From Bacteroidales bacterium UBA2712 (GTDB lineage: Bacteria; Bacteroidota; Bacteroidia; Bacteroidales; Paludibacteraceae): a stretch of DNA of 64,000 nucleotides. The notes beneath the pieces were generated by a model. The model was not told where the DNA came from, searched no databases, and was given only the letters and a program-made list of their open reading frames with translations. Where the stretch lies: the NCBI GenBank assembly GCA_002354055.1, contig DEKW01000006.1:1864-65863 (forward strand). Direction: 5' to 3'. Each line of letters starts with the position of its first letter. Position 1 is the stretch's first letter. Below, in pieces: positions 16,550 through 47,536 of this stretch. Both the position numbers and the translations under genes were made by a program.

Positions 16550-16560
16550 TTTGTACTGTA

Positions 16561-18107: not shown

Positions 18108-18142
18108 TAAAAATTCTTTTTTTCGGTAAAAATAAAAAAAAA

Positions 18143-18174
18143 TTTGCGTATCTCAAAAAAAAGCAGTACCTTTG
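18143..18174 (+). promoter_or_regulatory. Bacteroidota-type promoter of pnp (TTTG, 20 nt spacer, TACCTTTG)
   Basis: TTTGCGTATCTCAAAAAAAAGCAGTACCTTTG, read directly. It shares the AAAAAAAAGCAGTANNTTTG module with other promoters in the window. Confidence 0.75.
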
Positions 18175-18241
18175 TCCGACTTTTTATGGGTCTTATCAAA
18201 TTAACCGGTCGCAAACGGCGGCCAAAAATGACGAATAAAGA

Positions 18242-30938: not shown

Positions 30939-30965
30939 ATAGTCATGTGATTTTAAAATCGGCGG

Positions 30966-30973
30966 CAAAGATA
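30966..30973 (-). promoter_or_regulatory. -7 box TATCTTTG upstream of the AAA+ ATPase gene
   Basis: Read from the reverse complement. I saw no clean TTTG -33 element at the expected spacing. Confidence 0.45.
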
Positions 30974-31184
30974 CAAAATTATTTTGAATTGATGAAATAT
31001 ATTTCAAACTTTTTGTAAAAAACATGATTTTTTGAAGCAGATTTCAAAGTTTTTTACAGAATTGATGCATAAATTAATTGTTTCACTATGTATATGAAAG
31101 ATAAAAACTGAAAATGAAAAGGACTAAGTGAGAAGAGTCATATATAAAAACAATAATAGTTGTGCCCGACAGGGATGAGGGTGC

Positions 31185-31316
31185 AAAAAGACACAAGGTA
31201 GATAAAAAAGATACAAGCTTGTATAAAAAAATAGACAAGGAAGCATAAAATAGACAAGCAAAATTTATACAAGCCACCCCAAAAGGAACAAGTAAAGCAA
31301 AAAAGGAACAAGCTGG
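31185..31316. repeat. Iteron-like array: seven A-tract plus (A/G)NACAAG words at about 15-23 nt spacing
   Basis: AAAAAGACACAAGG / AAAAAAGATACAAGC / AAAAAAATAGACAAGG / AAAATAGACAAGC / TTTATACAAGC / AAAAGGAACAAGT / AAAAAAGGAACAAGC, read directly. Confidence 0.75.
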
Positions 31317-31469
31317 ATAAAAGAACATTAATAATGTCGCTATGTCGCTATTGAAAAGAAGAAAAAAGATGGAACTTTGAAACTTTGATGAGACTTTGTA
31401 AGAGCTTGTAAATGAGAGAGATATGTGCGAAAGTCTCAAAGTTTCAACAGTCTCACGCACAAAAAAAGA

Positions 31470-31498
31470 AAAGCGACAAAGCGACAAAGCGACACGAC
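31470..31498. repeat. Tandem octamer AAAGCGAC x3 (plus partial copy)
   Basis: Read directly; non-coding. Confidence 0.9.
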
Positions 31499-31509
31499 AT
31501 ATTTCGCAA

Positions 31510-31536
31510 AAAGTGCAGAAAGTGCAAAAAGTGCAA
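31510..31536. repeat. Tandem nonamer AAAGTGCA(G/A) x3
   Basis: Read directly; non-coding. Confidence 0.9.
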
Positions 31537-31685
31537 AGCCAATATTTGCGTTGAATGGGGTAGGTGACGGTAGTCTGTGGGTAGCTGAATATCTAACGAA
31601 TAACGAACGAATATCTAACTAATAACTAACGATTGGAAGGTAAGAATCTCGAAGTTGAGTTGGAAACAGACACAAGCTTAGTCCG

Positions 31686-31716
31686 AAAAGGAACAGGCTG
31701 AAAAAAGGAACAGGCT
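31686..31716 (+). repeat. Paired direct repeat AAAAGGAACAGGCT x2 immediately upstream of the wHTH gene start
   Basis: GAAAAGGAACAGGCTGAAAAAAGGAACAGGCTTG, read directly. The same pair recurs at 31976-32010. Confidence 0.85.
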
Positions 31717-31721
31717 TGAAT

Positions 31722-32051
31722 ATGAATACAAAAGTTAAAATAGAGGAGAGAGTGCAGAAATTGGTGGTGGTAATTGGGAGAGAGGCACATTCGAGACGTG
31801 AATTGATGGCTGTGTTGGGCTTACGACAAGAGTCTCGCAGGAACTTTTATGACAATTATATGAAGCCGGCGACAGCAAGAGGTTTGGTGACGATGCAATG
31901 TCCCGAACATCCAAGTATTCCGGAACAGGCTTACAGATTAACAGCGAAAGGTTTGGAGTATTTGGAAGAACTTTCAAAAAAGGAACAGGCTGTCAAAAAA
32001 GGAACAGGCTATGAGAGATTGGGTTATCTCTTGGTCACAAAAATTGAATAA
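31722..32051 (+). CDS. Small winged-helix DNA-binding protein resembling the C-terminal wHTH module of Fic- or AlbA_2-type proteins
   Basis: ...SRRELMAVLGLRQESRRNFYDNYMKPATARGLVTMQCPEHPSIPEQAYRLTAKG resembles the recurrent '...NYL.PAL..GLIEMT.PDKP.S..QKYRLT.KG' tail. I chose the ATG at 31722; the ORF-track start at 31716 is TTG. Confidence 0.55.
   Translation: MNTKVKIEERVQKLVVVIGREAHSRRELMAVLGLRQESRRNFYDNYMKPATARGLVTMQCPEHPSIPEQAYRLTAKGLEYLEELSKKEQAVKKGTGYERLGYLLVTKIE
31976..32010 (+). repeat. Paired direct repeat AAAAAGGAACAGGCT x2 at the 3' end of the wHTH gene
   Basis: AAAAAGGAACAGGCTGTCAAAAAAGGAACAGGCT, read directly. The two copies are read in different codon phases, so the conservation is at DNA level, not protein level. 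Confidence 0.85.
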
Positions 32052-32093
32052 TGAACAACAACAAAGATAAGTGAAATAAAAAACAACAAAGAT

Positions 32094-34082
32094 ATGAAGA
32101 CAAAAATCATGAATTTGTTTAGAACGATTGGGAAGAATTACAAAATGGGAAAGAGTCTCAAGAGTCTCAAGAGTCTCATGCAAATTTTTGCCACTTTTGC
32201 CACTTTTGCCAGTGCAATTTTTGTAGGCAAAGAGTCATGCAAGAGTACGGTGAGGTATGCTCTATGGTCTAGGATTAGTCTTATAAAACCCTTACAAAAC
32301 CCTTACTTAACCCTTACTCGCTTCCGACTTAGTCTCGGTTCGAATCTCTCTCGTTCTCGGTCGGCTTGTGCTCCCCGCACGCCTTCCCTGTTCAAAGACA
32401 AAAGTCAATTGTCTTTTCCATCTCTCGCCAGTCTGATTTGCCTATGTATGCTGACTGTCGGAGTTGGGAATGCGTGGGCAGATTACACCATTATTTTCAA
32501 AGATGGGTCTGGAACCGACCCAATTAATGCGTCTACATTAAGTAATTTTATTAATTCTGGCACATCGTATGTCACAAGTGCATCAAGTTCGTATATGTAT
32601 CCAAGTGCCACAACTGGATATGGAATACGTTTAGCTTCTGGTAGTTATGCTGGCAACTTAACATTAAATCTATCAGCGACAGGACAAATAAAGGCCTCAA
32701 AAATAACTTTCAACGCAGCCTATTATAGTTCTGATGAATCTACAATGCCTTATACAATCACTTATACCGATAATACTACCACAACGGGCACAATCTCAAC
32801 TTTATCTACATCATTAGCAGATAAGGAGGTCTCTTTAACTTCTACAAAAACGATTAAAACTATATACATTGGTACCACGGCTAAGAAGAAACGAGTTTAT
32901 GTACATTCCATTAAAGTTACTGCAGCCGCTGCCACTTCTGTTACTGCAAGTCCGAGCAGTATTGCGTTCCCAGACAATACTGTTGAGGTCGGAACAGATG
33001 AAGCAACGAGTACTATAACGCTTTCTAATGGATACGCATCATACGGGAATTATTTATATGGTTGGTTCGAGGACTTGAGTGATGAAGATCATTGTGAGTT
33101 CTTTGTCAATGATGGCAGTACATATAGTTACAGCACATCTGGTAGTGCAACACCTACTTTAACTTTCTCCTATTTGGCAGATGCGGCAGGAACTTTTACT
33201 GGAAAGTTTATCATACAAGGCTATAATTCCAGTTATACTGCTGTAAACTGTACAATTCCATTAAGTGTAACGTTAACGTCCAGCTGTACCAATAGTGTCA
33301 GTATTGAAACGGGCACTCCGACAAACTGCACGCTTAGCGCGAGTGCAGCGAGTGTGTCAACATGTAGTGGGACAAGGCAAGTGACAATAAGCGTTACACC
33401 GAACTCTTGTTATGCTGCACCGGAGGATGCAAGTATAATAAGTAAAAGCGGTACTACTGCAACATTGGTTAGTGGTCCGACGCTGAATGCCGGTCATTAT
33501 GATTATGTATATAGTTTTGCTGAGAATGCGACAGGGACAGCGACATTCAATGCCAGCCTTTCGACAAAAACGACATATACCGTTCAGTATAATGCAGGAG
33601 CGACCACTTGTACGGGAGGTAACGCTATTACAGGATCACATGACAATGACACAAAGACTTGTGGCACTAACTTGACTTTGCCGGGTGAGACATTCCATAC
33701 AACCGGTTATACGCAGACTGGTTGGACAAAGACACCTTGTGGAAGTCAGACAAACAGTTTAGGAGGTAGTTATAGCTCTAACGCTGCGCAGACATTCTAT
33801 CCGGTATGGACCCCAAACAACTATACGGTGACATGGAAAGTGAACAATGAAAACTATTCGGCAGGAGGTTCGTCGAGTGTTACTCACGGAAATCATATTA
33901 CGACATTACCTTCGGCGCCGAATCCTCCGACATACGGATGTGGAGATGTGTTTGTAGGGTGGACAGATGTGCAGAATTATGTGCATGGCACATCACCATT
34001 GTACACCACAGCTGCTGAATTCCCGAATGCGACGGGTGATCAAGTGTTTTATGCCGTATATGCGGATTATACAACGGATTAA
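32094..34082 (+). CDS. Secreted surface protein with Listeria-Bacteroides (InlB B-type / Flg_new) repeats; paralogue of the N-terminal part of the giant protein; 5' end uncertain
   Basis: A signal-peptide-like ...LICLCMLTVGVGNAWA appears about 120 codons into the ORF and matches the giant protein's LTVLGVGNAWG. The C-terminal modules YTVQYNAG...GYTQTGWT...FYPVW and YTVTWKVN...FVGWTD...FYAVY fit the Flg_new pattern. The first ~120 codons consist of short tandem DNA repeats. Confidence 0.6.
   Translation: MKTKIMNLFRTIGKNYKMGKSLKSLKSLMQIFATFATFASAIFVGKESCKSTVRYALWSRISLIKPLQNPYLTLTRFRLSLGSNLSRSRSACAPRTPSLFKDKSQLSFPSLASLICLCMLTVGVGNAWADYTIIFKDGSGTDPINASTLSNFINSGTSYVTSASSSYMYPSATTGYGIRLASGSYAGNLTLNLSATGQIKASKITFNAAYYSSDESTMPYTITYTDNTTTTGTISTLSTSLADKEVSLTSTKTIKTIYIGTTAKKKRVYVHSIKVTAAAATSVTASPSSIAFPDNTVEVGTDEATSTITLSNGYASYGNYLYGWFEDLSDEDHCEFFVNDGSTYSYSTSGSATPTLTFSYLADAAGTFTGKFIIQGYNSSYTAVNCTIPLSVTLTSSCTNSVSIETGTPTNCTLSASAASVSTCSGTRQVTISVTPNSCYAAPEDASIISKSGTTATLVSGPTLNAGHYDYVYSFAENATGTATFNASLSTKTTYTVQYNAGATTCTGGNAITGSHDNDTKTCGTNLTLPGETFHTTGYTQTGWTKTPCGSQTNSLGGSYSSNAAQTFYPVWTPNNYTVTWKVNNENYSAGGSSSVTHGNHITTLPSAPNPPTYGCGDVFVGWTDVQNYVHGTSPLYTTAAEFPNATGDQVFYAVYADYTTD
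32153..32179. repeat. Tandem nonamer GAGTCTCAA x3 (last copy GAGTCTCAT)
   Basis: Read directly. It translates as SLKSLKSL in the 32094 ORF. Confidence 0.9.
32184..32210. repeat. Tandem nonamer A(C/T)TTTTGCC x3
   Basis: Read directly. It translates as FATFATFA. Confidence 0.9.
32285..32317. repeat. Tandem 11-mer (NNAACCCTTAC) x3
   Basis: AAAACCCTTAC AAAACCCTTAC TTAACCCTTAC, read directly. Confidence 0.85.
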
Positions 34083-34129
34083 AGATATTCAATAATGTTT
34101 AAAGTTTAATGTTTAAAGAATTAGAGATT

Positions 34130-37100
34130 ATGAAAACGAATATCTTGACAAATATACGAGTTTGGGCAATCATGATGGTTTGCCTGACAGTGCTGGGCGT
34201 TGGAAATGCGTGGGGTGCTGTTGTTAGTGGGACAACATACAACACCAACAGTGGTAATACACCTACTGGTTGGACGATAAGTGGAGGAACCGGAACAGGA
34301 GGCACTTACATCGGTTTGACATACGATGACAAGTATATTCAGACGGATGAGTTTTGTGTCAGTTCTTTCAGTAGCATAACTTTAAGTGCAAGAAAGTATG
34401 GTGGTCCGTCAGATGCAGAAGCATTGATAACTGTATCGTGGTGGGTCGGAGGTGTAGAAACCGTATTAGGAACAGTGGCTCCAACCGGTACGTCATTAAG
34501 CAATTATACAATTAGTTCTCCGGCATCTGTTTCGGCGAATTCAGAAGGGTATGTCAAAATATCATGTAAATCATCGGCCAGCGGTAAAGGCTCAGGTGTT
34601 GGGGCTGTTACCATTAGTTATACAGCGGGAACACCGACGCCTCACACTGTGACATTTAATGCAGAAGGAGGAACATGTGGGACGAGTAGTTTAACCGGTA
34701 CAAGTGTAACACTACCTGCAGCGACAGGATGTCCTTCGGAGGGTTGGGAATTTTACGGATGGGCGACGGCGCGATGTGCTTCATCTACCCCTACAGCTCC
34801 GACAATTGTTGGTAAAGCAGGTGATACGTATAAGCCAGCCGCCGACATTGAATTACATGCCGTATATGCAACAGGTGAGTACACGAAAATTACCAGTACC
34901 GGCGCAATAACAAGCGGTGGAAAATATATAATAGCTGGAGAGTATAGCGGAGATAATTATGTAATGACTAACACGACTACGACAGATGCGTATGGCACGT
35001 GGTTAGTGGGAACCGTAATAAGTGAAGATCCTACCAATAAGTACCATGCAGCAAAAATTAATGCCGCATGGCTTTGCACTATTACTGCTACTAGTGACAA
35101 ATACTATATACAAAATGCAAGCGGAGGATGGATAGATACTTATTACCAGAGCAGCGATTGGTATAATCACACACCTCAGGATACATATGATAAATACACC
35201 ATTGATTTTAGTGCCGGGGATGGGACTTGTACTATTAATAACTCATATGGAACGAAGTCCTATCTTACTTTGTTTACTGATGGGACATTTGGACCTAATG
35301 ATGATGGATATGCATTGTATCTATACAAACAAACCACCACTCCTGCCTATTGGAGTGATCCTCCATGTTGTTCGAACAAAGTGGCAGTGAGCTATAATTC
35401 GGCGGGGAGTACGCATGTATCGGCAATGACATTCTCGGCGGCAAGTATTGCGACTTGTGGAGGAGCGTCTACAAGACAAGTGACGGTATCTGTGACGCCG
35501 ATTTCGGGATATCTCTTCAAAGCGGGAGATGAGTTGACTTGGACCAAGAGCAGTGGAACGATTCCTGCCGCTCCGACATTGGTAAGTGGTCCAACACTCA
35601 ATGCCGGTAAATATGAGTTTGTTTATGAATTTGCGCAGAACGATAATGGCGCAGGTACGTTTGCTGCAACCGCTTCGACATTGATCAATTATCGTACGGT
35701 ATGTTGTACGGAGTATGATATAGCATTGAATAATAGCGGTAGTGCTACAGGCGGAACATTCAGCGCAAGCAAGGCAAGAGCCTGCGAGGGAAATGAGGTG
35801 ACCTTGACGGCGACACCGGATGCATGTTATGTATTCGGCAGTTGGACGATAAAGAAACATTCCGACAATTCCGACGTAACAACAAGCGTATTAGCCGGAA
35901 ATACACTTACGATGCCGGACTACGCTGTAGATGTATATGCCACATTTACCAGCAAGACTGTTTCCGCACTCAGTCTAAGCATGACCGGCGGACATCAGAA
36001 TCTGGATATAGGAGAGACGAATCAATTGTTAGTTTCATACACTCCGGCAGATGCTATCTGCGATAATGCAATCGATACATGGTCCAGCAGCAACAGTCTG
36101 ATACTTGATGTAAACAGTAGTGGTTTAGTGACTGCAGTAAGTGCCGGAAGTGCGACTATAACTGCGACTACAGAGGGAGGCGTTAGTAATACATACACTA
36201 TTACTGTCAATTCACCGGCTTGCGATTCATGGTTCATGCATCACTGGAACAACTCGACGAATGGCGATGAGTGCTTCTATCAGTATAGCGGCACAGACTG
36301 GCGTACGAACAATATCTCATTGCCGAGCAGCAGCAGTGAGGAGAAGTTCAATGTCAACAATGCAGCCGGCAACCCTGATGCCAAGAAGAAAGATGTTGAG
36401 TTTAATACATTGGGTTTTGCAGACATCCAACGTGGTGGTAATAGCTGCGGAAGTAATCCATACCCCGGACAAAATGCCTATGGAAAGATGGGCATTTATA
36501 CCAATTCGGGCGACAATAACCGTTTTGTGGCTTTCTATCCGGACAAATACATGGTGACATACGGAAAAGAGGGCCAAGCATGGAGTACATTGACATTCAG
36601 CAATACCACAGGTTATGAATATGAGAGTCCCGTATTCCAAGTACCAAGCGGATACAAGAACGACAATACCTATAAATACTATGTAGGTATTAACAATAGT
36701 AGCGATGCCATTCTGTTCGTTACTGGCAAGAGTAGTACCGACGCTATGAACGGCGTGAGCGGTTTGAGTAGCAGCGACATGGGAGGCAAATGGGGTAAAT
36801 GGCATATCTATTCAAACTCATGTGCCAACAACTGGTATTGTGAGTTCATCCGCTACTATCAAGTTGACTTTGCTCTAAATGGCGGAGAGGGTAGTATCGC
36901 ACCGCGTTATGGCAAGACAACTACTCCTTATGTCACATTCAACACAAGCGAGATAACTCCTCCGACAAAATCCGGTTACACATTCCTCGGCTGGAGTGAT
37001 GGAGTGAACACATACGCGCCTTCCGGTGCTACTGTGACTATTGACGGTGACAAGACGCTGACCGCTCAGTGGGCAGCGAACCACACCTTATCTTATAATT

Positions 37101-40100
37101 ATAACGGCGGTGACGGTTCGAGTTGCGTAGGCGGCACGAAATATACAGGCGAGTCGTTCACGGCTTGCTCGAGTGCCGGAGATAAGGAAGGTCACACCTT
37201 TACCGGCTGGTTGGGCAGCAACAGCGTAAGTTATACGGCAGGTTCAAGTTATTCGATGCCGGATGCTGATTTGACGCTGACCGCACAATGGAATCCGGAT
37301 GAATATAACATCACGTATAAGGATCAAGGTGACGCGGCTTATTCCGGAAACAAGACGGATGGTCGTCCGACAGGCAACCCCGCAACGCATACATATGGCT
37401 CTGCGACTGCGTTAGTGGATGGTGTCAAAGCAGGTTACCGTTTTGACGGTTGGTACACGAATAGTACTTGCACCGAAGGACCGGTAACATCTATTGGCGC
37501 AACGGCTAAAACGGCGGACTTCACGCTGTATGCTAAATGGACGCAAGTTTGGACTATTTCGTGGAAGATTTGGAACAACGCTGAAAGTCGTTATGACGAG
37601 TATGCAGGTGACGGCACTCATACAACAGAGGTTGTCGCCGGCGGTACCATCAGCAAGATACCGACTAATCCGGCAGACAATGCATTAAGCAGTTGCGCAA
37701 GCAAGTTCATGGGGTGGAGCGAGACATGTTTAGGCTCCGATGTAGGACAGAGCGCACCGGGTGACTTGTTTACCACGACACCGGTCGGAAGCATTACAGC
37801 CGATAAGACCTATTATGCGGTGTATGCGAGTGTTGATGATCCGGAATCATGGACCAAAACAGCACTTGGAAGTGTTACTGCCGGTACCTATGTTTTATTG
37901 GATGCTAACGATTATGCATTCAACGGAACTATCAATAATAGTGGACATGGAGAGATTACCGAGTCGGCATTTAGTTTTTCCGCAGGAGTTGCTACATCAG
38001 CGCCAGAGGGTATTTGTGAGATGGAATTCCAAGCAGTAAGCGGAGGTTTCAAGATGTATAATCCGAAAACAGAGAGATACCTCTATGCTACTGCGGCTTC
38101 ATCTGGTAAATTGGCATGGGCAGTTTCCGATGATGATTACTGGTATCTTAATAATAGTAACTGGACATATAGTGCGACATATAGTGGCAATCACCCAATT
38201 GTTCGTACATACAATAACTTGATGAGGTCCTATGCTCCTTCGACCACTAATGGTATAGCCTTAGTGGTAGCGAAGAAGACTCCGGGTACTTGGAAAGATT
38301 ATGTCACTTCTTGCTGTGGTACAGCGGCTGTGACGAACGGCGGTTATACTAATGTGACTGGTTCGGGAAGTACGATGTCTGCCAAGGTTACTTGGACCGA
38401 TGCGGCTAACACTAACCGTTATCGCGTTGTATGTGAGGACTTGAGCATTGATGCTATTTCTACTAATAAATATTACACGACTGCCGGCGTAATGACCTCG
38501 TGTACGGACTATACGTTCAATGTATATGCTGCGCCCGAAGGCGGATGTCAGTCTGCGCCGTTAGAGATAACCGTTTCGCCTGTGGAGGCAGCGAGGACAG
38601 TAACGTTCAACTACAATGGAAGCGGACAAGCAACCGGATCTTTCACAACCGATTGTACGCATAGTTCAACTAACTTGCCGACGCCGGACGCTTATGCCGG
38701 TCACCGTTTTGACGGTTGGTGGACATTATCCAGCGGAGGTAGTTCGGTTGGCGCTGCAGGAGCAGAATATACTCCTACTGCGTCAATAGAGATATTTGCA
38801 CATTGGATCGCTATAGCCGACTTGACCTATGACGGCGATGTAACGGGTACTTGTACGGGCACGAGCAGTACGGATGTAGGTTCTTCCGTAACGGCTTGTA
38901 CTCCAGCAAGTCGCGACCATTACACCTTTGATTATTGGATTCGTAGCGATAATAGCGCACATGTTAATGCAGGTGCAACGTTCACAATGCCGGCATCCGC
39001 ATTGACTCTTACCGCACATTGGACTGCAGATTCATATACCATCAATTATTATGATCAGGGTGGCAGTGCTTACTCTGGTTCAAATAGTGGTTCACTTCCT
39101 AGTACGCACTCATATGGAATAGCGTCTATTCTTCCGAATGGTGTGAAAGAAGGCTATCGCTTCGATGGCTGGTTCACCTCGAGCGCGTGCACGGGTGATC
39201 CTATTACATCTATTGCATCTGATGCAGAAGGACCGTTTATATTATATGCAAAGTGGACTGCATCCCACACGTTTACGTTCAGCAAGAACGGCGTTGTGGA
39301 TGGTACGTTGACACTCGGTCAGGTAGAAGGCGGCAATGTGATCATGCCGAATACGACTGTAGATTGCGGTCTGTGGACAACTTTCGAAGGCTGGGTTATT
39401 GGTGATGTAGCAGAGACGACTACCGAACCGGCGACGATTTACAAGCCGGGTGATATCTATGTTGCGGGAAATAGCGACCAAGAGTTTAAGGCGGTTTACT
39501 CGAAGCACGAAGGGGATGCAAGTGTATATTACGAGAAAGTGACCAGTGGTCCGAAGAGTGGCGATTATATATTGGTATCTTCAGCGAAGAGCGATGTGTA
39601 TTATACTACTACAGGTTGGAATAGTGGCTCAAGTATCTATTCTACCGCAGCAATTACTCTGTCATTAGAGGGAACAATTAGTTCTGCTAGCGCTACTTCT
39701 GCTGGCGCTAATACATTTACTATTCACTCCGGACACAATGGTGCAAATGTAGGTAAGTTTGCTATGTACGACGGAACTAAATACATGGAAAGCGGTAGTA
39801 GCATTACTCGTCAGGATGGACAAAGTTATAGCTGGGAGTTACTAGATGGAAGCACTAAGGTTAATGACAAAGATTATATACCAGGAGCAGGCGCTATCCA
39901 TTCTACTGCCTCAACTACGTATGTATTGCAATTGCGCAACCATAGTAATGCAGACCGTTTCAGTATGTATGCCAATACGCAGAATCTGGACGTTTACCTC
40001 TATCGCAAGAAAATAGCAGGAACGACGTATTATACGACGGCACCGGGAAGTTGTGACGTGCCGACAGAGATCACAGTAAGTTACAACGACAACAAAGCGC

Positions 40101-43100
40101 ACGCCGGCGACCAGACTATCAGCGGCATGCCGAGCGGAACAACGTTAACGTTTACTTCGTATCCTAACTTTGTAAGTTATACTATAGGAGCAGCACCGAC
40201 TGACCCGACGGGTTATCATTTCGCAGGCTGGAACACTCAGGCGGATGGTAACGGCGATGACTATGCAGCAGGCGCAAGCGTGACGACATTCGGCTATAGA
40301 GAAACGATTACGTTGTATGCTAAGTGGGAGCGCGTATATACGGTAACGCTGTATGATAATGGTGTTGAGCGGACGAGACTGACGCAGGCGAGTGCCGGAG
40401 CAAATGTGACGCTTCCGAGCGGAAACAACTGTGGTGTTGGTAGCGCATTTACATTTGTTGGATGGACGGATAGTCCTGTACAATTAAATGCGGAGCCTGT
40501 TCGCCCGAACATTGTATCTGGTGCCGGCGAATGGGGCGATGACGAGTTGACAGATGATATTACGCTGTACTCCGTTTATTCGAAGTCCGTAGCCGGTTGC
40601 GATGATTTCGCAGCAGGTGTCAGCGGAGCGTATAAGTTTACTGATAAAGCATCCGAAGAATATGCTCTTGCAGCCGGAGGAACTTCAAGTAGTTATGCAA
40701 GAGGTTCATCGGGTGATGCAGAAGTATTCTATATAGGATACTCACCCGCTAAGAGTGCTTATACCATCCGCACGTCTACAGGATATTTAGGTTGGTTTGG
40801 GGCTTCCGGTTCTGAAGCATTGACGAAGGGCAATACTACGCCATATTATTGGAATATCACGGCAGGTACCGGTGCTAATTCTGGTTATTGGTACTTTGAG
40901 CCGGTTGGAATTTCAGGAAAGCAATTTAGTGGTAATAGCGGTAGTAAATTCCAAGTACATGGTAACAGCACGAAGTACTACATTCAATTGACCAAAATTG
41001 CCATGACGTACTACTATAACACGGCTATTTGTGGAGAGAATAGCATTACTTTCCATGACGGAGGCGGTACGATTAGCGGTACGCCGACGATGCCGGATGG
41101 CGCAAGTTGGAATAGTGGCACGCACGTATTGAGCGGATTGGATGACTGCGACAAGATTACCGAGTTCCCGACGGCCAATTATGACGGATGGACGTTTGTC
41201 GGCTGGAGTACAGAGGACTATAGCAATAGTGGAAAGCATATAGCAGATTATGCGGAAGAGAATGCCAGCACGGATGAACCTGATGCCTCCATAATCTATA
41301 AGACCGGCGGTAATCCGTATGTGGTTCGTGGTGGTAGTATTGATCTGTATCCTGTCTTTACCCGCTTCCCGGACAACGAACCGTTTGACTTGGAAAACGG
41401 AGGTACTTACTATATGTATTATCTTGATCCAGCTTCAGATGATGGTTATGGTGCTCCTCAACGCAGATACGCAGGTGAATGGGATGGTACCAAACGGTAT
41501 AAAGCTGTGACTAATTGTGCAGAAGCAACCGCGTTTGTATTCTCTAAAGAAGGCGATATATGGCATATTCGGAATGTAAGCACAAGCAAATGGCTCGGAG
41601 GTAAGAGTAGCGACGACTGGTTGATAGAGAACTCATCCCTTGGTACGTTGACCGATTGGACCATTACGATTCGTAGCGGAAACCAGTTCAATGTAAGTTG
41701 TCAGAGCGGACGTCAAATCATTGTATATGATAATTTCTTCATGGACTATGCATCTACGAATCTGGATAATAACCCTGGCTACCATTGTGTCTATCTGGGT
41801 AGTTGCGAGGAGCGTATCTTCTCGTCTGAGCCTCACGCCGTACCGACAATTGACTTGATAGGTTCTCCGATAATAACCTCCAGTGTAGGTCAGCGTGTAC
41901 GTGCCACGGAGGCCATGACGCTGAGCGGTTCACACTTGGCGGGTGCAACGAAGATCACATTGTCCAGTACCAACCTGACATTTGCGACAAGTGCGACTGC
42001 TACTCCGGCTGCTAACTTGGAAGTCACGGTAACATCCGGAAGTGTAGCTGAAACGAACATTTATGTATATTACACACCTGGAGTAGGCGACACCAGCGAT
42101 GGTATAGAGAGTATCATCGTAACCGCCACGGATAACGGAACGGTACCTGCTGAGGCGAAAGCGAATGTCAGTGTTCGTCACCTGCCGGCAGACTTTGTGA
42201 TTGCTGCTAAGTGGGGCGACAAGTGGTACGCGTTGCCAAACACCTGTAATGATAGTAAGAGTTCGACGACCGGCGTGGTGATCACCGTGGATAACGACAA
42301 TGACCCGACCTGTGCAACGGCTGCGCCGAGTACTGCCAAGTGGGGATTGCGTCAGACGAAACAGCCGGCACGTATCACTGCAGGCTATGCCGATCGTCTT
42401 ACTTTCACGGAGCGCGGTACAACCGCCACAGCGGACAATCAGCAAGCGTTGTATAACTACAACAGCGCGGATGTCTATACCAATGCGCAGTGGACCAATT
42501 ACGCGAATACGAATCCGGATCGCTATGAGTGGATTCCGGTGACGGCAGACTTCAAGGATTATACATTGACGAATGCAAGTGAAAGCAAGCCGCTGATCCT
42601 GCGTAATGACGGTGAGTTTAAGGCGCAGACTACTAATCAGGCATATAACGGAAAGGTTCGTCTGTTGCCGGCTACATTCTATGAAGAAGCACCTGTGCAG
42701 ATTGTAGAATGGAAGGCCAACAGCGTAGTAGTCATGTACACAGGAACTGAGACATCGGCAACAACAAAAGTAGGTACTAACAGCGCAAGTGCATCACAGA
42801 CATTGAGCACACACAAACTGACACATGGTATCTACGAGTTGACGACAGGACAAAGTCTTGCTTCAAATGACGGAAAGAATCTCTTATTGACATTCGGTTC
42901 TATGAAGAAAGTATTTGAGATACCTGTAATTATTACCGGCAACTCAACTGCATACTCCGGTCATGAAAAACAAGATGTAGTGATTGTAAACGGAGGTAAA
43001 CTGTCAGCGGCTGCCACCAAATATAGTTATCACAATATTTATGTATATGGCGGTGGTAAGTTGAAGATAGCGAGTGAAACGAATCTTGGTGTGAATAATA

Positions 43101-44551
43101 TCATTCTGCGTGCGGGTGGTATCACCACCAGTGGCATCGGTTCTTCGCCTTCGGCAACGTACGAGTACGTTTATCCGCAAGTAGAATTAGGCGGAACGCT
43201 AACCAGTACAAAGACGGATATCAAGTACGAATACATCACCGACTATGACCATTGGTATCAGCTCTGTTTACCGTTCAATGCTACGCTGAGCAGTATTCAT
43301 TACCCGCAAGAGTATTACGGCGATAATGTGACAGCCTCCAATACCGGCAGTTGGGTTATCAAACGCTACGCCGGTGAGGTTCGTGCGACGGGTAACTACG
43401 ACGCATGGAAAGATATAGAAACCGAAAGTGCAACCTCTGTAACCGCCGGTCATGGATATATCTATTGGGGCGCTCCGAAGAAAGTATCTGTAGGAGGTGC
43501 CGCTAAACAACGTCAGCAATGGGGTATCCAGCGTATCACCATGCCTATTACGGCAACGGCAGCTACTACTGCGGAGACGGCGGACAAGAACATATCCGTT
43601 GATTCCTATAGTGAAGTGGCGACAAGCGATAAACCGAATGACCAAGGATGGAACCTCGTCGGTAACCCGTATATGGTGGACTTGACCGACTTGAGCAGCA
43701 ACAGTATGATTGCCGGTCAGTTGGTTCATACAGAGATTGTTCCTTGGGACGGCAAATGGAGGAATAACGGTGATGGTGTACGTTATGTAACGATCCCGGA
43801 TAATCACTTTGATTCCTATGTGGCAAAGACGGCTTCTGTGGCATCCGGAGAAGGAGACTTTATGCCGGGTCGTGCATTCTTCGTACAGATTGCAGGAGGC
43901 GCAAGCACGTTGACCTTCGCTGCCGCTAACCGCGCATCGTTGACACCTGCACGCTTTGCACAAACCGCTCAATCGGTGGATATAGAAACAGGTATCGTCA
44001 TGAGCGATGAGTCCAAACACGATGAAGTGAACTTCTGGATCAAGGAAGATAAGACGGCAGAGTACGAATACAATGCTGATTATCCGAAGACGCCGAACAA
44101 TACGAACTTCAATATCTATGGCGTCCACAGTCATGGAGACCTGAGCTGGATTGCTATCAGTCCGGAGATCGCAGAGGGTTCAATGGCTATCGGTTATCAA
44201 GTACCGACGGCAGGAGAATACCGATTGAGTTTGAGCGAGACGTATGTTTCGGATAAGATAGACCAACTGCTCGTCACCGACCATGAGATGAGTCCGGAGA
44301 TTACGACAAACCTGTTAACCGAAGATTATGTCTTCCATGTTAATCAGGCAGAGACGAACAATACTCGTTTCACCGTTTCTATCCATCTGGCTCCGCAGAC
44401 ACCGACAGATATCGGAAATGTGCCGAGCGAAGGAATGAATGCGGATCATGCGAAACCGCAGAAGTTCATCTATCACGACAAGTTGTACATCTTGCGAAAC
44501 GGCGTGATTTATGACGCAACGGGTAAAAAAGTGAAAGGAGGCCTGAAATGA
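34130..44551 (+). CDS. Giant (about 3473 aa) secreted surface protein / putative adhesin
   Basis: Signal peptide MKTNILTNIRVWAIMMVCLTVLGVGNAWG. Flg_new-type units are present (e.g. HTVTFNAEGG...GWEFYGWAT, YQVDFALNGG...GYTFLGWSD...LTAQW, YNITYKDQG...GYRFDGWYT...LYAKW). A Big_2 domain lies at about 35950-36215 (…LVTAVSAGSATITATT…). A novel ~150-aa module recurs. The C-terminal motif QKFIYHDKLYILRNGVIYDATGKKV is present. I chose the ATG at 34130. Confidence 0.85.
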   Translation: MKTNILTNIRVWAIMMVCLTVLGVGNAWGAVVSGTTYNTNSGNTPTGWTISGGTGTGGTYIGLTYDDKYIQTDEFCVSSFSSITLSARKYGGPSDAEALITVSWWVGGVETVLGTVAPTGTSLSNYTISSPASVSANSEGYVKISCKSSASGKGSGVGAVTISYTAGTPTPHTVTFNAEGGTCGTSSLTGTSVTLPAATGCPSEGWEFYGWATARCASSTPTAPTIVGKAGDTYKPAADIELHAVYATGEYTKITSTGAITSGGKYIIAGEYSGDNYVMTNTTTTDAYGTWLVGTVISEDPTNKYHAAKINAAWLCTITATSDKYYIQNASGGWIDTYYQSSDWYNHTPQDTYDKYTIDFSAGDGTCTINNSYGTKSYLTLFTDGTFGPNDDGYALYLYKQTTTPAYWSDPPCCSNKVAVSYNSAGSTHVSAMTFSAASIATCGGASTRQVTVSVTPISGYLFKAGDELTWTKSSGTIPAAPTLVSGPTLNAGKYEFVYEFAQNDNGAGTFAATASTLINYRTVCCTEYDIALNNSGSATGGTFSASKARACEGNEVTLTATPDACYVFGSWTIKKHSDNSDVTTSVLAGNTLTMPDYAVDVYATFTSKTVSALSLSMTGGHQNLDIGETNQLLVSYTPADAICDNAIDTWSSSNSLILDVNSSGLVTAVSAGSATITATTEGGVSNTYTITVNSPACDSWFMHHWNNSTNGDECFYQYSGTDWRTNNISLPSSSSEEKFNVNNAAGNPDAKKKDVEFNTLGFADIQRGGNSCGSNPYPGQNAYGKMGIYTNSGDNNRFVAFYPDKYMVTYGKEGQAWSTLTFSNTTGYEYESPVFQVPSGYKNDNTYKYYVGINNSSDAILFVTGKSSTDAMNGVSGLSSSDMGGKWGKWHIYSNSCANNWYCEFIRYYQVDFALNGGEGSIAPRYGKTTTPYVTFNTSEITPPTKSGYTFLGWSDGVNTYAPSGATVTIDGDKTLTAQWAANHTLSYNYNGGDGSSCVGGTKYTGESFTACSSAGDKEGHTFTGWLGSNSVSYTAGSSYSMPDADLTLTAQWNPDEYNITYKDQGDAAYSGNKTDGRPTGNPATHTYGSATALVDGVKAGYRFDGWYTNSTCTEGPVTSIGATAKTADFTLYAKWTQVWTISWKIWNNAESRYDEYAGDGTHTTEVVAGGTISKIPTNPADNALSSCASKFMGWSETCLGSDVGQSAPGDLFTTTPVGSITADKTYYAVYASVDDPESWTKTALGSVTAGTYVLLDANDYAFNGTINNSGHGEITESAFSFSAGVATSAPEGICEMEFQAVSGGFKMYNPKTERYLYATAASSGKLAWAVSDDDYWYLNNSNWTYSATYSGNHPIVRTYNNLMRSYAPSTTNGIALVVAKKTPGTWKDYVTSCCGTAAVTNGGYTNVTGSGSTMSAKVTWTDAANTNRYRVVCEDLSIDAISTNKYYTTAGVMTSCTDYTFNVYAAPEGGCQSAPLEITVSPVEAARTVTFNYNGSGQATGSFTTDCTHSSTNLPTPDAYAGHRFDGWWTLSSGGSSVGAAGAEYTPTASIEIFAHWIAIADLTYDGDVTGTCTGTSSTDVGSSVTACTPASRDHYTFDYWIRSDNSAHVNAGATFTMPASALTLTAHWTADSYTINYYDQGGSAYSGSNSGSLPSTHSYGIASILPNGVKEGYRFDGWFTSSACTGDPITSIASDAEGPFILYAKWTASHTFTFSKNGVVDGTLTLGQVEGGNVIMPNTTVDCGLWTTFEGWVIGDVAETTTEPATIYKPGDIYVAGNSDQEFKAVYSKHEGDASVYYEKVTSGPKSGDYILVSSAKSDVYYTTTGWNSGSSIYSTAAITLSLEGTISSASATSAGANTFTIHSGHNGANVGKFAMYDGTKYMESGSSITRQDGQSYSWELLDGSTKVNDKDYIPGAGAIHSTASTTYVLQLRNHSNADRFSMYANTQNLDVYLYRKKIAGTTYYTTAPGSCDVPTEITVSYNDNKAHAGDQTISGMPSGTTLTFTSYPNFVSYTIGAAPTDPTGYHFAGWNTQADGNGDDYAAGASVTTFGYRETITLYAKWERVYTVTLYDNGVERTRLTQASAGANVTLPSGNNCGVGSAFTFVGWTDSPVQLNAEPVRPNIVSGAGEWGDDELTDDITLYSVYSKSVAGCDDFAAGVSGAYKFTDKASEEYALAAGGTSSSYARGSSGDAEVFYIGYSPAKSAYTIRTSTGYLGWFGASGSEALTKGNTTPYYWNITAGTGANSGYWYFEPVGISGKQFSGNSGSKFQVHGNSTKYYIQLTKIAMTYYYNTAICGENSITFHDGGGTISGTPTMPDGASWNSGTHVLSGLDDCDKITEFPTANYDGWTFVGWSTEDYSNSGKHIADYAEENASTDEPDASIIYKTGGNPYVVRGGSIDLYPVFTRFPDNEPFDLENGGTYYMYYLDPASDDGYGAPQRRYAGEWDGTKRYKAVTNCAEATAFVFSKEGDIWHIRNVSTSKWLGGKSSDDWLIENSSLGTLTDWTITIRSGNQFNVSCQSGRQIIVYDNFFMDYASTNLDNNPGYHCVYLGSCEERIFSSEPHAVPTIDLIGSPIITSSVGQRVRATEAMTLSGSHLAGATKITLSSTNLTFATSATATPAANLEVTVTSGSVAETNIYVYYTPGVGDTSDGIESIIVTATDNGTVPAEAKANVSVRHLPADFVIAAKWGDKWYALPNTCNDSKSSTTGVVITVDNDNDPTCATAAPSTAKWGLRQTKQPARITAGYADRLTFTERGTTATADNQQALYNYNSADVYTNAQWTNYANTNPDRYEWIPVTADFKDYTLTNASESKPLILRNDGEFKAQTTNQAYNGKVRLLPATFYEEAPVQIVEWKANSVVVMYTGTETSATTKVGTNSASASQTLSTHKLTHGIYELTTGQSLASNDGKNLLLTFGSMKKVFEIPVIITGNSTAYSGHEKQDVVIVNGGKLSAAATKYSYHNIYVYGGGKLKIASETNLGVNNIILRAGGITTSGIGSSPSATYEYVYPQVELGGTLTSTKTDIKYEYITDYDHWYQLCLPFNATLSSIHYPQEYYGDNVTASNTGSWVIKRYAGEVRATGNYDAWKDIETESATSVTAGHGYIYWGAPKKVSVGGAAKQRQQWGIQRITMPITATAATTAETADKNISVDSYSEVATSDKPNDQGWNLVGNPYMVDLTDLSSNSMIAGQLVHTEIVPWDGKWRNNGDGVRYVTIPDNHFDSYVAKTASVASGEGDFMPGRAFFVQIAGGASTLTFAAANRASLTPARFAQTAQSVDIETGIVMSDESKHDEVNFWIKEDKTAEYEYNADYPKTPNNTNFNIYGVHSHGDLSWIAISPEIAEGSMAIGYQVPTAGEYRLSLSETYVSDKIDQLLVTDHEMSPEITTNLLTEDYVFHVNQAETNNTRFTVSIHLAPQTPTDIGNVPSEGMNADHAKPQKFIYHDKLYILRNGVIYDATGKKVKGGLK
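44459..44548 (+). other. Coding segment for the shared C-terminal motif (QKFIYHDKLYILRNGVIYDATGKKVKGGLK)
   Basis: Aligned by eye with four other C-termini in the window. This is the most divergent copy. Confidence 0.7.
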
Positions 44552-44934
44552 AAACATTGAGATATATGTTGATTGTAGCAGCCTTGCTGAGCGTCATGAG
44601 CATTGAGGCGCATATGTTTGACAAGACTTGGGGGCAAAAGCCCGTGGTAGAAATGCACTCTACTTCAGCGATGGCTTATTCGGGTTCGACCCTTCCGCAG
44701 GCTGCGGCTACCGGAGTTACTCTGGCAACAGTAGCAGACGTAGAAACCAGCACCAGACCCTATCACCCCGGACGTATTCGCAGAGCTGAGGATGATGAAG
44801 ATGATGATACACCTCCTACAGATCCCCACGGACCTAATGAGGATCCCTTAGGTGACGTCCTCTGGCCGCTGATGCTGATGGCACTGGCTTATGTGGTGTA
44901 CCTTAAGACTCGAAAAAAGAAAGAAAATATATAA
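44548..44934 (+). CDS. Small secreted/anchored protein: signal peptide, acidic Pro-rich stretch, C-terminal TM helix and basic tail
   Basis: ATGA start/stop overlap with the giant gene. Sequence elements: MKTLRYMLIVAALLSVMSIEA; ...RRAEDDEDDDTPPTDPHGPNEDPLGD; VLWPLMLMALAYVVYL; KTRKKKENI. Confidence 0.6.
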   Translation: MKTLRYMLIVAALLSVMSIEAHMFDKTWGQKPVVEMHSTSAMAYSGSTLPQAAATGVTLATVADVETSTRPYHPGRIRRAEDDEDDDTPPTDPHGPNEDPLGDVLWPLMLMALAYVVYLKTRKKKENI

Positions 44935-44947
44935 TAATCAATCTATC

Positions 44948-47536
44948 ATGAGAAAAATATTCATTTTGTTGGCGGCAACGATATGCGCTGTGGGTGCATA
45001 TGCCGCATCTATCACTGCTTCGGACGTGGATTTCGGAATAGTAAGTATCAAAGGGCAGAGTTCCGTAACGGCTACCGAAGAAATCCCTGTTTCGTGGAAC
45101 GGGCTGAGTAATCAAGGCTATTATATCTATGCGGAAATTACTTCCGGAGATGATAATTTCTTCATCAGCGGAGAGAGTTCCTATTACATGGGTTATGGAG
45201 CAAGCATGACCTATTCTACTACCTTTACGATTGGCTACTATGCTGAGACCGCGGGTTCCTTTACCGGTACGCTCCGTTTCTATAGTTACGACATCAATTA
45301 TAATGAGGTGGAGAAGATAGTCAACCTCAGTGTTGTTGTCAGTTCGGATGCTATAGTGGCCAACACCACTCCGTACGTGCGCATCAACTCTACCAGTGAG
45401 TTACACGAAGGCGATACTGTTGTGTTTGTGAATGAGGCAGCCGGAGCAGTCAGCGGTCCGCTGAACGGCACTTATCTGACGGCGATCACCGAAGGTGTGA
45501 CCATCAATGCCACTGCCGGAACAGCAGAGATGCCGGAAGGCGTAAGGGCATTTAAGATGCATAAATACAGCGGCAACTGGCAGTTCCTCTTCATCGAAGA
45601 TGAGACGACCGCCTTGCTCTTGGATTATGTATCGAATAATGCCAAGGGTGCTTTTGCAACAGTTTATGCCGCCGGGCAGACGGTTAAGACATGGGAGATC
45701 AGTATCAGCAACGGCGAGGCAGCAGTCTTCCGTCCCAACGATGCGGATCCTGCTTACCCGGTTCGGTTTAACAGCGACCGCTTTAAACCCTATAAGACCG
45801 AAGCTACCGGCACTTCGTTCGCGCTCTACAAGAAAGCCGGAGAAGCACAAGAAGTAAGCAGCTCTTTAGAGATCGAGGCTATCCAGTTTGGCGATGTGGA
45901 GTTGGGCGAGAGCGCTGAGGTGACGGTCAATTATACTGCCGAGAACCTGACGGATGATATCATCTGGGAGGTGGAAGGAACGGACGCTGCGTTGTTCAGC
46001 GTAACGGAGCAAGGCGACCGTACCGGCGGAACAGTGACCATCACTTATCTCGGTACCGGCACGCAGCTTGGTACGGTAGATGCGCATCTGAGTTACTTGA
46101 CGCAAGATATCCATCTGGAGATAATGGAAGGTACCGCGCCCATCACCATCAATCTCATACCGACGACTACCAAACTGACGAATCTGGCATTTGTGGGTGC
46201 TCCTTCCTCCATCGACCAGGGACAGTCCATCGACCTCAGTTCGTATATCGTCTATACGCCGAATGACGCGGCAGATAAGTCTTTGGTATGGAGCGTTGAT
46301 CATACGTATCAAGGTGAAGTTAGTGAAGCAGGTGTGCTGACTGCCAAGCATGTAGGCGGTACCGTGACGGTGACTGCGACCTCGGTGCGCGTGCCGAGCG
46401 TGAGCGCCAGCCATACCCTGACCATCACCGAACCGGTCGTCACGGATTTCACGCTCTCGCACAGCGAGATGACGATGCACAAAGGCGATACGCAGACGCT
46501 ATATGTGACGGCTATTGTGCCGGATTATGCAAGCGTGAGTCCTGCTTTCTCCAGCAATAACACCGCCGTAGCGACCATCAGTAACAGAGGTCTGGTGACG
46601 GCAAGAGGAATCGGTGAGGCGGTTATCACGGCTACTATCGGCAGCGTGGAACGGATTTGTACGGTACATGTGCAGCCGGTGGATGTAACCAGCGTCAGCT
46701 TTGATCCTGCTACCGTGAGTCTGACGGTGGGCTCGTACCTGCAGCTGAATCCGGTCGTGCTGCCTGCGCAAGCCAAGGACGAATACCCCATGACGTATGT
46801 CTCCGACAACGAGGCTGCGGCTACTGTGAGCGAGAGCGGTCTGGTTACCGGCATCGCAGAAGGCCAAGCCGTCATCACCGCTACTATCGGCGGCATGAGC
46901 GGGCAGATAACGGTAAACGTAGTTGCGGCATCGATGTTCACCAAAGTGACGGACGCTTCTACGCTGGCGGCGAAAGATACGATCGTTCTGGCTACTATTT
47001 ATAACAACAGCGGCGTGATTGCCGGTCCGCGCGGTACAGACAATGCCGGAAAGAAGAAACTGAGTGTTCTGACCGAAGGTGTAACCGTTACAGAGACAGA
47101 GGCATATGCTGATGAGGCTTGCCGTTTGGTACTGGGAACGGAGAAGAACAAAGAAGGCTTCACGCTGACAATCGTAGGCGGAAAGACGATAGCCGTAACC
47201 TCTACAGGCAACGATATCGTTGATGCAAACACGCAGAATTGCAAGTTCTGGGAGTTCGTAGAAGATGGCAATAACGGCTATTTCGTACGCAACCTCGGTA
47301 ACACGAACGCGATGTTCAAATACCACTCGGGTAATGCGGCTATCAAGCCATACAAGCTCAATACCACCGGTGCTGTGTACGTTTATGCCTATGTGCGCAA
47401 GTACGTAGATCCGATAGTGACCGGCATGGATGAGACGCAGGCTCCTTCGATCGAAAGCCGGAAGATTCTTCGCGACGGACAGGTGCTGATTCTCCGCAAC
47501 GGCGAGGTCTATACCGCCACCGGAATGAAGTTATAA
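44948..47536 (+). CDS. Secreted surface protein with three Big_2 (bacterial Ig-like group 2) domains, two copies of the novel module and the shared C-terminal motif
   Basis: Signal peptide MRKIFILLAATICAVGAYA. Big_2 signatures: ...GVLTAKHVGGTVTVTATS, ...GLVTARGIGEAVITATIG, ...GLVTGIAEGQAVITATIGG. C-terminus RKILRDGQVLILRNGEVYTATGMKL. Confidence 0.8.
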   Translation: MRKIFILLAATICAVGAYAASITASDVDFGIVSIKGQSSVTATEEIPVSWNGLSNQGYYIYAEITSGDDNFFISGESSYYMGYGASMTYSTTFTIGYYAETAGSFTGTLRFYSYDINYNEVEKIVNLSVVVSSDAIVANTTPYVRINSTSELHEGDTVVFVNEAAGAVSGPLNGTYLTAITEGVTINATAGTAEMPEGVRAFKMHKYSGNWQFLFIEDETTALLLDYVSNNAKGAFATVYAAGQTVKTWEISISNGEAAVFRPNDADPAYPVRFNSDRFKPYKTEATGTSFALYKKAGEAQEVSSSLEIEAIQFGDVELGESAEVTVNYTAENLTDDIIWEVEGTDAALFSVTEQGDRTGGTVTITYLGTGTQLGTVDAHLSYLTQDIHLEIMEGTAPITINLIPTTTKLTNLAFVGAPSSIDQGQSIDLSSYIVYTPNDAADKSLVWSVDHTYQGEVSEAGVLTAKHVGGTVTVTATSVRVPSVSASHTLTITEPVVTDFTLSHSEMTMHKGDTQTLYVTAIVPDYASVSPAFSSNNTAVATISNRGLVTARGIGEAVITATIGSVERICTVHVQPVDVTSVSFDPATVSLTVGSYLQLNPVVLPAQAKDEYPMTYVSDNEAAATVSESGLVTGIAEGQAVITATIGGMSGQITVNVVAASMFTKVTDASTLAAKDTIVLATIYNNSGVIAGPRGTDNAGKKKLSVLTEGVTVTETEAYADEACRLVLGTEKNKEGFTLTIVGGKTIAVTSTGNDIVDANTQNCKFWEFVEDGNNGYFVRNLGNTNAMFKYHSGNAAIKPYKLNTTGAVYVYAYVRKYVDPIVTGMDETQAPSIESRKILRDGQVLILRNGEVYTATGMKL
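47459..47533 (+). other. Coding segment for the shared C-terminal motif (RKILRDGQVLILRNGEVYTATGMKL)
   Basis: Direct alignment by eye. Confidence 0.85.

Follow-up and report, generated by a model that had tools for sequence, protein, structure and literature searches.

Four consecutive open reading frames (ORFs) on the plus strand of a 64-kb window from the genome of Bacteroidales bacterium UBA2712 (the window being the whole stretch of 64,000 nucleotides analyzed), here called g1 to g4, encode a closely packed set of proteins which all bear Sec signal peptides. Among them are the giant g2 and, directly downstream, the small g3, which together represent the invariant core of a locus type recurring in related genomes (Table 1). 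The ORF calls agree with the original prediction, made from the sequence alone, in the sizes of the four genes, the ATGA overlap between the g2 stop and the g3 start and the spacing of 13 nt between g3 and g4. The gap between g1 and g2, which had been put at 48 nt, amounts to 47 nt and, as had been claimed, contains no promoter box; a Bacteroidetes-type -7 box (TAnnTTTG) was found neither at any of the g1-g4 junctions nor across positions 31000-33511. The relatives used for comparison are all metagenome-assembled genomes (MAGs) or metagenome contigs, and ORF starts are provisional.

ORFs were called on all fetched loci and scored with profiles. A giant protein bearing the conserved C-terminal module of g2 is encoded directly 5' of the g3 homologue in 60/60 loci with a visible upstream ORF. 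These g3-preceding proteins comprise 1,370-3,480 amino acids (aa), are separated from g3 by -4 to 153 nt and match the last ~860 aa of g2 with E values not exceeding 1e-143. An ORF of the g1 class is present on the same strand 5' of the giant in 38/47 loci, while a g4-like protein, recognizable by an unnamed ~150-aa module (modA) and a C-terminal tail, is encoded adjacent to the pair in 11/48 and within 7 kb in 24/48 loci. In view of these counts, the invariant core consists of the giant's C-terminal module and g3, the arrangement with four genes being one among several and the g4-like gene being facultative. Hence, the proposal that all four genes form a unit has to be narrowed to the giant and g3; for these two, co-occurrence elsewhere, the absence of which was to count against the original prediction, was found without exception in the 60 loci examined. 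In species representatives of GTDB, 45 g3 loci were identified, all from MAGs of rumen/gut Paludibacteraceae or unclassified Bacteroidales; in several cases one genome possesses two of them.

Table 1. Features of the giant/g3 locus and further tail-bearing proteins, with positions in the 64-kb window.
Feature	Position	Strand	Length	Composition and remarks
g1	32094-34082	+	662 aa	ORF call; N-terminal extension; signal-peptide core aa 114-129; Ig-like module (shared with g4); module common to g2; two Flg_new-like repeats
g2, giant	34130-44551	+	3473 aa (gene callers' ATG); 3480 aa from alternative ATG 34109	Signal peptide; 12 Flg_new repeats interleaved with 5 modA; 1 Big_2; ~860-aa C-terminal module; tail
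g3, partner	44548-44934	+	128 aa	ORF call; signal peptide aa 1-21; motif PVVEMHSTSAMAYSGSTLPQAAATGV aa 32-58; acidic linker; PLGD aa 100-103; predicted transmembrane helix aa 104-120; TRKKKENI tail
g4	44948-47536	+	862 aa	ORF call; signal peptide; Ig-like module (shared with g1); 2 modA; 3 Big_2; tail RKILRDGQVLILRNGEVYTATGMKL at 47459-47533
Conserved C-terminal module	41825-44458	+	~860 aa	g2 aa ~2573-3450
g2 tail	44462-44548	+		KFIYHDKLYILRNGVIYDATGKKVKGGLK; modelled as three short beta-strands
Cassette junction	44840-44860			Nucleotide identity to UBA3717 rises from ~55% to 93-100%; PLGD codons of g3
Leader repeat field	31185-32320	+		8-22-nt tandem repeats, reaching into the first ~75 codons of g1
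M6-like peptidase	15095-16549	-	484 aa	Signal peptide; C-terminal tail as in g2 and g4
Pectate lyase	61333-62982	-	549 aa	Signal peptide; tail KIIREGRLLILRDNKTFDITGRRVN

Members of the g3 family are characterized by a signal peptide with an AxA site, the motif M-x-S-T-S-x-M-x-x-S-G-S-x-L-P-x-A-A-x-x-G, a variable segment between this motif and the acidic segment, and the sequence P(L/I)GD. Residues S38, S45-G46-S47, L49-P50, A52-A53 and G102-D103 are invariant, the last two standing before a hydrophobic stretch that is followed by the K/R tail. With its cleavable signal peptide, C-terminal transmembrane helix and basic tail, g3 is predicted to be built like the membrane anchor or adaptor that it had originally been taken for, while anchoring as a lipoprotein was rejected as no lipobox cysteine is present. 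There are 182 close homologues, and a profile search extends the family to 663 clusters at 50% identity, nearly all between 110 and 170 aa. No match to g3 was obtained in Pfam, NCBIfam, PADLOC or PDB, the sole name given to homologues in any source is 'hypothetical protein [Paludibacteraceae bacterium]', and in the literature searched no description of the giant/g3 pair or of the tail was found. In two longer relatives, P0328 (904 aa) and P0365 (637 aa), a complete g3-like protein continues in frame into a g4-like signal peptide, Big_2 domains and tail; P0248 and P0364 bear the g3 motif twice.

The ~860-aa module of the giant is predicted to be composed, in this order, of an Ig-like domain, a beta-trefoil-like domain, a short beta-helix-like segment, an alpha/beta domain with the motif GWN(L)(I/V)GNPYM and a beta-sandwich. 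AlphaFold2 (AF2) models based on family alignments reached a predicted local distance difference test score (pLDDT) of 84.7 and a predicted template modelling score of 0.74 for g2 aa 2570-3480, and a pLDDT of 83.0 for aa 2859-3480. When compared with PDB by Foldseek, the N-terminal part of the module showed matches at the level of domains only, to Ig-like arrays and to a beta-trefoil (ThreeFoil, TM-score 0.68 on the target), and the last 620 aa gave no significant match (best E value 7e-3), so that no global PDB neighbour was found. Likewise, sequence searches of the C-terminal 911 aa of the giant against Pfam, NCBIfam, PADLOC and PDB revealed no family beyond weak, sub-threshold G8 matches, which recur at the short beta-helix-like segment. 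In BFVD, the sole strong neighbour of the model of g2 aa 2859-3480 is A0A8D9C8P8 (E value 1.7e-17 over 611 columns), a protein of 587 aa labelled 'putative hemin binding protein' in the record of an uncultured marine phage, the match giving no indication of function. The C-terminal module is therefore present outside the Paludibacteraceae clade, and the model comparison suggests that a ~600-aa version may form a protein of its own in marine Bacteroidota or in phages of these. An interpretation as a phage tail-fibre module was rejected, as the viral structural neighbours are limited to this record.

The remainder of the giant is made up of parts known from adhesins. Scores of g2 reach 162.7 bits for Flg_new (Listeria-Bacteroides repeat, cut-off 27), 76.5 for Flg_new_2 and 104.2 for TIGR02543, and the family profile locates the 12 Flg_new repeats of g2 and the two of g1. 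Big_2 (PF02368) exceeds its cut-off in g4 with 85.3 bits over three stretches, to which the PDB sequence matches of g4 are confined, and in g2 with 29.2 bits in one domain. Copies of modA occupy aa 257-408, 1251-1384, 1808-1966, 2174-2292 and 2430-2551 of g2. Their homology to the two copies in g4 is remote: when profile searching was iterated across the ORFs of the family loci, all seven were joined in iteration 2 (E values between 5e-5 and 1.5e-9), whereas direct HMM and jackhmmer searches with g4 modA did not recover the g2 copies, MAFFT gave no usable alignment of the seven copies in the window, and hhalign of modA against the beta-trefoil region of the C-terminal module was negative. For g1, no sequence family was found in Pfam, NCBIfam, PADLOC or PDB. 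A ~100-aa module (g1 aa 398-495 versus g2 aa 421-528) shows 48-51% identity, an Ig-like module (g1 aa 277-396 versus g4 aa 9-133) 30% (E value 4e-10), and the signal-peptide core is common to g1 (LICLCMLTVGVGNAWA) and g2 (MMVCLTVLGVGNAWG). These results bear out the original observations of a signal peptide and internal modules shared by g1 and g2 and of Big_2 and a ~150-aa module shared by g2 and g4. The Sec-exported modular proteins with Flg_new and Big_2 also agree with the adhesin-like system that had been proposed, while its designation as S-layer-type found no support.

In this modular composition, g2 with its 12 Flg_new-type repeats and g2 and g4 with Big_2 resemble internalins (Flg_new/InlB B-repeat) and BspA-type adhesins, which, however, have no counterpart of the ~860-aa module, the ~150-aa module, the tail and the obligatory small partner of g2. 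An adhesin- or lectin-like function of the giants may be presumed from these domains. The sequence MFKELEIMKTN at the upstream ATG of g2 (34109-34135) recurs nearly unchanged in many members (P0167, P0183, P0188 and L030-L032), suggesting that either the 5' leader is conserved or an alternative start is used. Anchoring of g4 as a lipoprotein was rejected due to a non-canonical context.

Both g2 and g4 end, behind a flexible linker of the PT/TGIE type, with a common C-terminal motif (KFIYHDKLYILRNGVIYDATGKKV and KILRDGQVLILRNGEVYTATGMKL, respectively). Nearly all giants show the form KFIYxDKxYILxNGVIYDATGKxV, g4-like proteins the form K(I/V)LRxGQ(L/V)LIxRNGxxY(T/D)xxGxxV. The motif had been noted before as a shared feature of g2 and g4, which is correct, but it is not specific to the locus. 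In the window, it is found on four proteins including the M6-like peptidase and the pectate lyase, whose N-terminal Sec signal peptides, like those of g2 and g4, can be read directly from the sequence; in related loci, alpha-amylases and other proteins carry it, and all carriers checked possess a signal peptide. In view of its presence on peptidase, lyase and amylases, the tail is a C-terminal tag of general occurrence among the exported proteins of this lineage.

The position of the tail is the one taken in some family members by type IX secretion system (T9SS) sorting domains. In five giant homologues (P0148, P0201, P0209, P0226 and P0228), a T9SS type A C-terminal domain (CTD) replaces the tail at the same junction, and as positive controls the L014 giant and P0148 score 30.3 and 26.7 bits, respectively, with TIGR04183 (cut-off 23 bits). 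Downstream of the CTD-ending giants P0226 and P0209 (L014-L016), the g3 homologue is still present at a distance of 13 nt. Both tail types occur side by side on the Paludibacteraceae contig L037, which encodes two module-bearing giants (2431-9954 and 12619-20202), one with the short tail and followed by g3, the other with a canonical T9SS type A CTD and followed by a different small ORF with signal peptide, of which only the start is available as it is cut by the locus end. By hhalign, the tail is collinear with the first half of the family CTDs, with KILRDGQVLILRNG aligned to VQLAVSGNTLLLNNL and VYTATGMKL to TIYDAVGHLI; the score of 17.5 compares with 8.6 ± 1.9 (maximum 14.3) for 60 column shuffles, the CTD profile being built from five sequences of one protein family. 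A 42-aa tail profile retrieved only short fragment ORFs without names from a large protein database. Genes of the T9SS (PorK/L/M/N, Sov, PorV, PorU etc.) are not encoded in the 64-kb window; relatives on similar contigs carry complete type A CTDs. We read the tail as a truncated type A CTD derivative that would act as a sorting tag, its exchange with complete CTDs being observed.

Comparison with Bacteroidales bacterium UBA3717 (L017) reveals that the giant and g3 are exchanged as a cassette. Flanking genes are 86-98% identical at the amino acid level and g4 is 92% identical, whereas identity drops to 61% for g3 and to 42% for the C-terminal module of the giant. With the jump in nucleotide identity located exactly at the PLGD codons of g3, it follows that the giant was replaced together with the ectodomain part of g3, while the transmembrane and tail part of g3 as well as g4 remained constant. 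Thus, g4 tracks the backbone, which again separates it from the pair. The GC content increases from 0.38-0.42 at 29-33 kb through about 0.45-0.49 in g2 to the 0.53-0.55 of g4 and the backbone. This gradient fits such a replacement and confirms the drift from an AT-rich 5' part to backbone values at the 3' end that had been seen by eye. Around the g3 3' end and the g4 5' end (44920-45100 versus L017 10380-10560), nucleotide identity of 98-100% even exceeds that of the surrounding backbone, and this segment, lying beside the ~55% one, looks like a recent recombination anchor.

The reading that we favour, at about even confidence, is that of an accessory, hypervariable operon of uncultured rumen/gut Paludibacteraceae (Bacteroidales) for giant modular surface-binding proteins, in which Sec-exported giant adhesins would be combined with a T9SS-related, lineage-specific tag and a dedicated inner-membrane tether or escort. 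Confidence is greater for the class of system than for the role of g3. With Sec signal peptides on g1, g2 and g4, these proteins are expected to be carried to the periplasm. As the tail occupies the CTD position and resembles the first CTD half, we infer that on g2 and g4 it may mediate outer-membrane translocation or surface retention via the T9SS or a derivative of it. After signal-peptide cleavage, g3 would reside in the inner membrane, with the C-terminal helix as anchor and the basic tail in the cytoplasm, so as to display its conserved peptide in the periplasm on an acidic, presumably disordered tether of about 50 residues. This peptide might bind the C-terminal module of its own giant, and g3 could thus serve as a dedicated escort or tether retaining the huge cargo at the inner membrane and passing it to the export machinery.

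For this pairing, the nearest functional analogy would be a type B CTD adhesin with its PorP/SprF-like partner, as SprB/SprF and other type B CTD cargo of Flavobacterium johnsoniae have cognate PorP/SprF-like partners encoded adjacent (PMC9143113). Likewise, a giant surface adhesin is combined with a dedicated partner gene directly downstream, and multiple paralogous pairs per genome are possible. In contrast to SprF, however, g3 is a single-pass protein of 110-170 aa in the family with a disordered ectodomain and not an outer-membrane beta-barrel, a type B CTD is missing and a sequence relationship does not exist; g3 itself has 128 aa, one predicted transmembrane helix and, as mentioned, no match in Pfam or NCBIfam. 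With T9SS type A cargo such as gingipains and HBP35 of Porphyromonas gingivalis (TIGR04183/PF18962), the tail carriers share a Sec signal and a C-terminal sorting element on diverse enzymes and adhesins, in addition to the resemblance in position and alignment.

Several points weigh against the favoured reading. None of the CTD models, whether TIGR04183/PF18962 or those for type B and type C, recognizes the four tails in the window (g2, g4, M6-like peptidase and pectate lyase), even when E values up to 10 are admitted. In AF2 models, the tail comprises only about 25 residues in three short strands (pLDDT 66-79) behind a disordered linker, while the T9SS CTD of P. gingivalis is a compact seven-strand 3+4 beta-sandwich of 67-108 residues (PMC11285876); the tail is thus far shorter and without the C-terminal strands that have been reported as essential in P. 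gingivalis (PMC11285876). Dependence on the T9SS is therefore deduced from positional exchange only. Moreover, an inner-membrane g3 is an odd partner of a protein ending up outside the outer membrane, g1-class proteins do not carry the tag, leaving their exit route from the periplasm, if any, unexplained, and a promoter was not identified for the operon. Finally, divergence of g3 and of the module is correlated over 51 loci with r = 0.30 (Mantel test, 0/2000 permutations as high), a modest value that linkage alone could produce.

Rumen Paludibacteraceae might even possess a hitherto undescribed route for exporting and anchoring very large surface proteins, in which the ~25-aa 'half-CTD' tag, descended from the first strands of the T9SS type A signal, is sufficient for sorting many enzymes and adhesins, and the cognate giant additionally requires g3, as a new family of inner-membrane tethers, to bring its C-terminal module to the translocon by means of the short periplasmic peptide. 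The recognition part of this escort would be exchanged with the cargo as one cassette; we regard this as a tentative possibility, less likely than not. That the tail is instead a non-covalent mini-domain binding to surface or glycan, similar to single cell-wall-binding or SLH-type anchoring repeats and retaining secreted proteins on lipopolysaccharide or capsule, seems unlikely. A three-strand beta-meander of ~25 aa after a flexible linker would suit this function, the carriers are enzymes and adhesins for which surface retention is useful, and coexistence with complete T9SS CTDs in one genome suggests more than simple redundancy between the two types of tail. Against it stand the swap with the T9SS CTD at the identical junction of homologous proteins, the alignment with the N-terminal CTD half above shuffled controls and the fact that the carriers show no other recognizable outer-membrane export signal. 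A quite unlikely interpretation is an effector-immunity system, with the C-terminal module as an envelope-active enzyme or toxin directed against competitors and g3 as a membrane-tethered, periplasm-facing immunity protein or inhibitor. As in CdiA-CT/CdiI and Rhs systems, every locus has a small cognate gene directly 3' of the gene for a giant exported protein, and a cassette is replaced jointly between close relatives at a conserved breakpoint; in addition, several genomes have more than one copy, the accessory islands in which the loci are situated also contain toxin-antitoxin genes and ATPases that are candidates for defence, and weak G8 and beta-helix-like signals recur in the module. Polymorphic toxins, however, swap their extreme C-terminus among unrelated folds, and their immunity proteins come from unrelated families. 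Here, all 60 giants match one homologous ~860-aa profile over its full length unless cut by a contig end, and their partners, equipped with signal peptide and transmembrane helix, match one profile throughout. Furthermore, what is conserved in g3 is a short linear motif within an acidic and largely disordered protein rather than a globular inhibitor, and a toxin or enzyme family was not detected in searches with the module.

Two further alternatives concern the small and the first protein of the locus. If g3 were itself a sorted substrate, P(L/I)GD, transmembrane helix and basic tail would constitute a cleaved tripartite signal, and the ectodomain would become covalently attached to the envelope or the giant. 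The succession of motif, hydrophobic helix and terminal K/R cluster indeed corresponds to the class represented by LPXTG/sortase, PEP-CTERM/exosortase and GlyGly-CTERM/rhombosortase, G102 and D103 are invariant and the cassette breakpoint coincides exactly with the PLGD motif. Other than in these systems, the motif is confined to a single family of small proteins: matches of a tail-bearing profile are nearly all of the g3 type with 110-170 aa, and the long hits that were read, P0328 and P0365, are in-frame g3-g4-like fusions. As a sortase, exosortase or rhombosortase-like gene was also not found in the annotated loci, this explanation is highly improbable. Very unlikely, too, is that g1 is a pseudogene or a fragment split off a longer giant, with an N-terminal extension consisting of repeat DNA that is non-coding and remains in frame by chance. 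The first ~110 codons, preceding the signal-peptide core, are laden with tandem repeats of 9 and 11 nt that continue the upstream field, a conventional start was not found just before the hydrophobic core, and the end of g1-class proteins coincides exactly with the boundary of a Flg_new repeat, like that of a cut giant, g1 itself ending with FYAVYADYTTD directly after such a repeat and without tail. Nevertheless, a separate g1-class ORF with signal peptide recurs, 35 of the 38 loci having it with the ending (F/Y)YA(V/I)(W/F), for example FYAVWA, plus a few mostly acidic residues; a split from the giant would therefore be ancient and maintained. Moreover, long N-terminal regions with SRSA-like motifs before the hydrophobic core recur in other members. 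Such extensions are reminiscent of the extended signal peptide region (ESPR) of autotransporters and two-partner secretion systems, although sequence similarity to the ESPR motif is lacking and the ~110-aa extension of g1 consists partly of tandem DNA repeats. Taken as a whole, Flg_new/Big_2 adhesins and Bacteroidota C-terminal sorting signals are known kinds of parts, while g3 is outside any described family.

In Bacteroidota, C-terminal sorting signals determine which enzymes and adhesins get to the cell surface, and the accepted rule is that a complete CTD fold of ~70-100 residues is required. If functional, a 25-residue tag exchangeable with a full CTD would necessitate revision of either what counts as the minimal signal or how many routes exist. 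The tag marks peptidases, lyases, amylases and giant adhesins in abundant uncultured rumen bacteria associated with fibre. The g3 family, unannotated, strictly syntenic and comprising 663 clusters, is a candidate for a cargo-specific accessory factor of proteins of 1,400-3,500 residues. Replacement of the cassette between flanks of ~90% identity makes the locus a hotspot of strain-level surface variation, with relevance to phage, protozoan or substrate interactions in the rumen.

The region directly 5' of the locus comprises an AAA_14/DUF4143 ATPase, a 111-aa Fic-like_C fragment and the tandem-repeat field, corresponding to the AAA+ ATPase, the winged helix-turn-helix gene and the dense repeats that had been listed as upstream neighbours. 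The repeat field is unusually dense, with units of 8, 9, 11 and 19-22 nt, for example AAAGCGAC (x3), GCAAAAAGT (x3.6), GAATAACTAAC (x4.2), AAGAGTCTC (x3), TTTTGCCAC (x3) and CTTACAAAACC (x3.5). A change in copy number of the 11-nt repeat inside g1 could shift the reading frame. In addition, AAGGAACARGCT occurs in five exact plus-strand copies at 31303-32010, with 0.43 copies expected in the whole window; four of them bracket, as two pairs, the Fic-like_C fragment ORF (31716-32051), and among the fetched loci this cluster was found in the same strain only.

On one flank, the locus is bordered by the housekeeping genes for PNPase, TamB, rplS and uvrB, on the other by a convergent 654-aa ORF (47531-49495, minus strand) and a GH77 enzyme. 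The stop codons of g4 and the convergent ORF overlap by 6 nt (47531-47536), as is also the case in L002, so that no terminator is possible between them. tRNA or non-coding RNA genes were not detected for the locus. The AAA_14/DUF4143 ATPase (29745-31025, minus strand) matches the PADLOC phage-defence candidate PDC-S01 (E value 1.4e-155), and AAA_14-type ATPases adjoin giant and g3 in several surroundings unrelated to each other (L005, L011, L014, L016, L040 and L054), single-sequence phmmer being too insensitive for quantifying this association. Encoded at 20537-21946 (minus strand) is a 468-aa fusion of an N-terminal TIR and an FGE-sulfatase domain, the TIR part of which matches ThsB-like and other TIR defence models in PADLOC with E values between 1e-8 and 7e-12.

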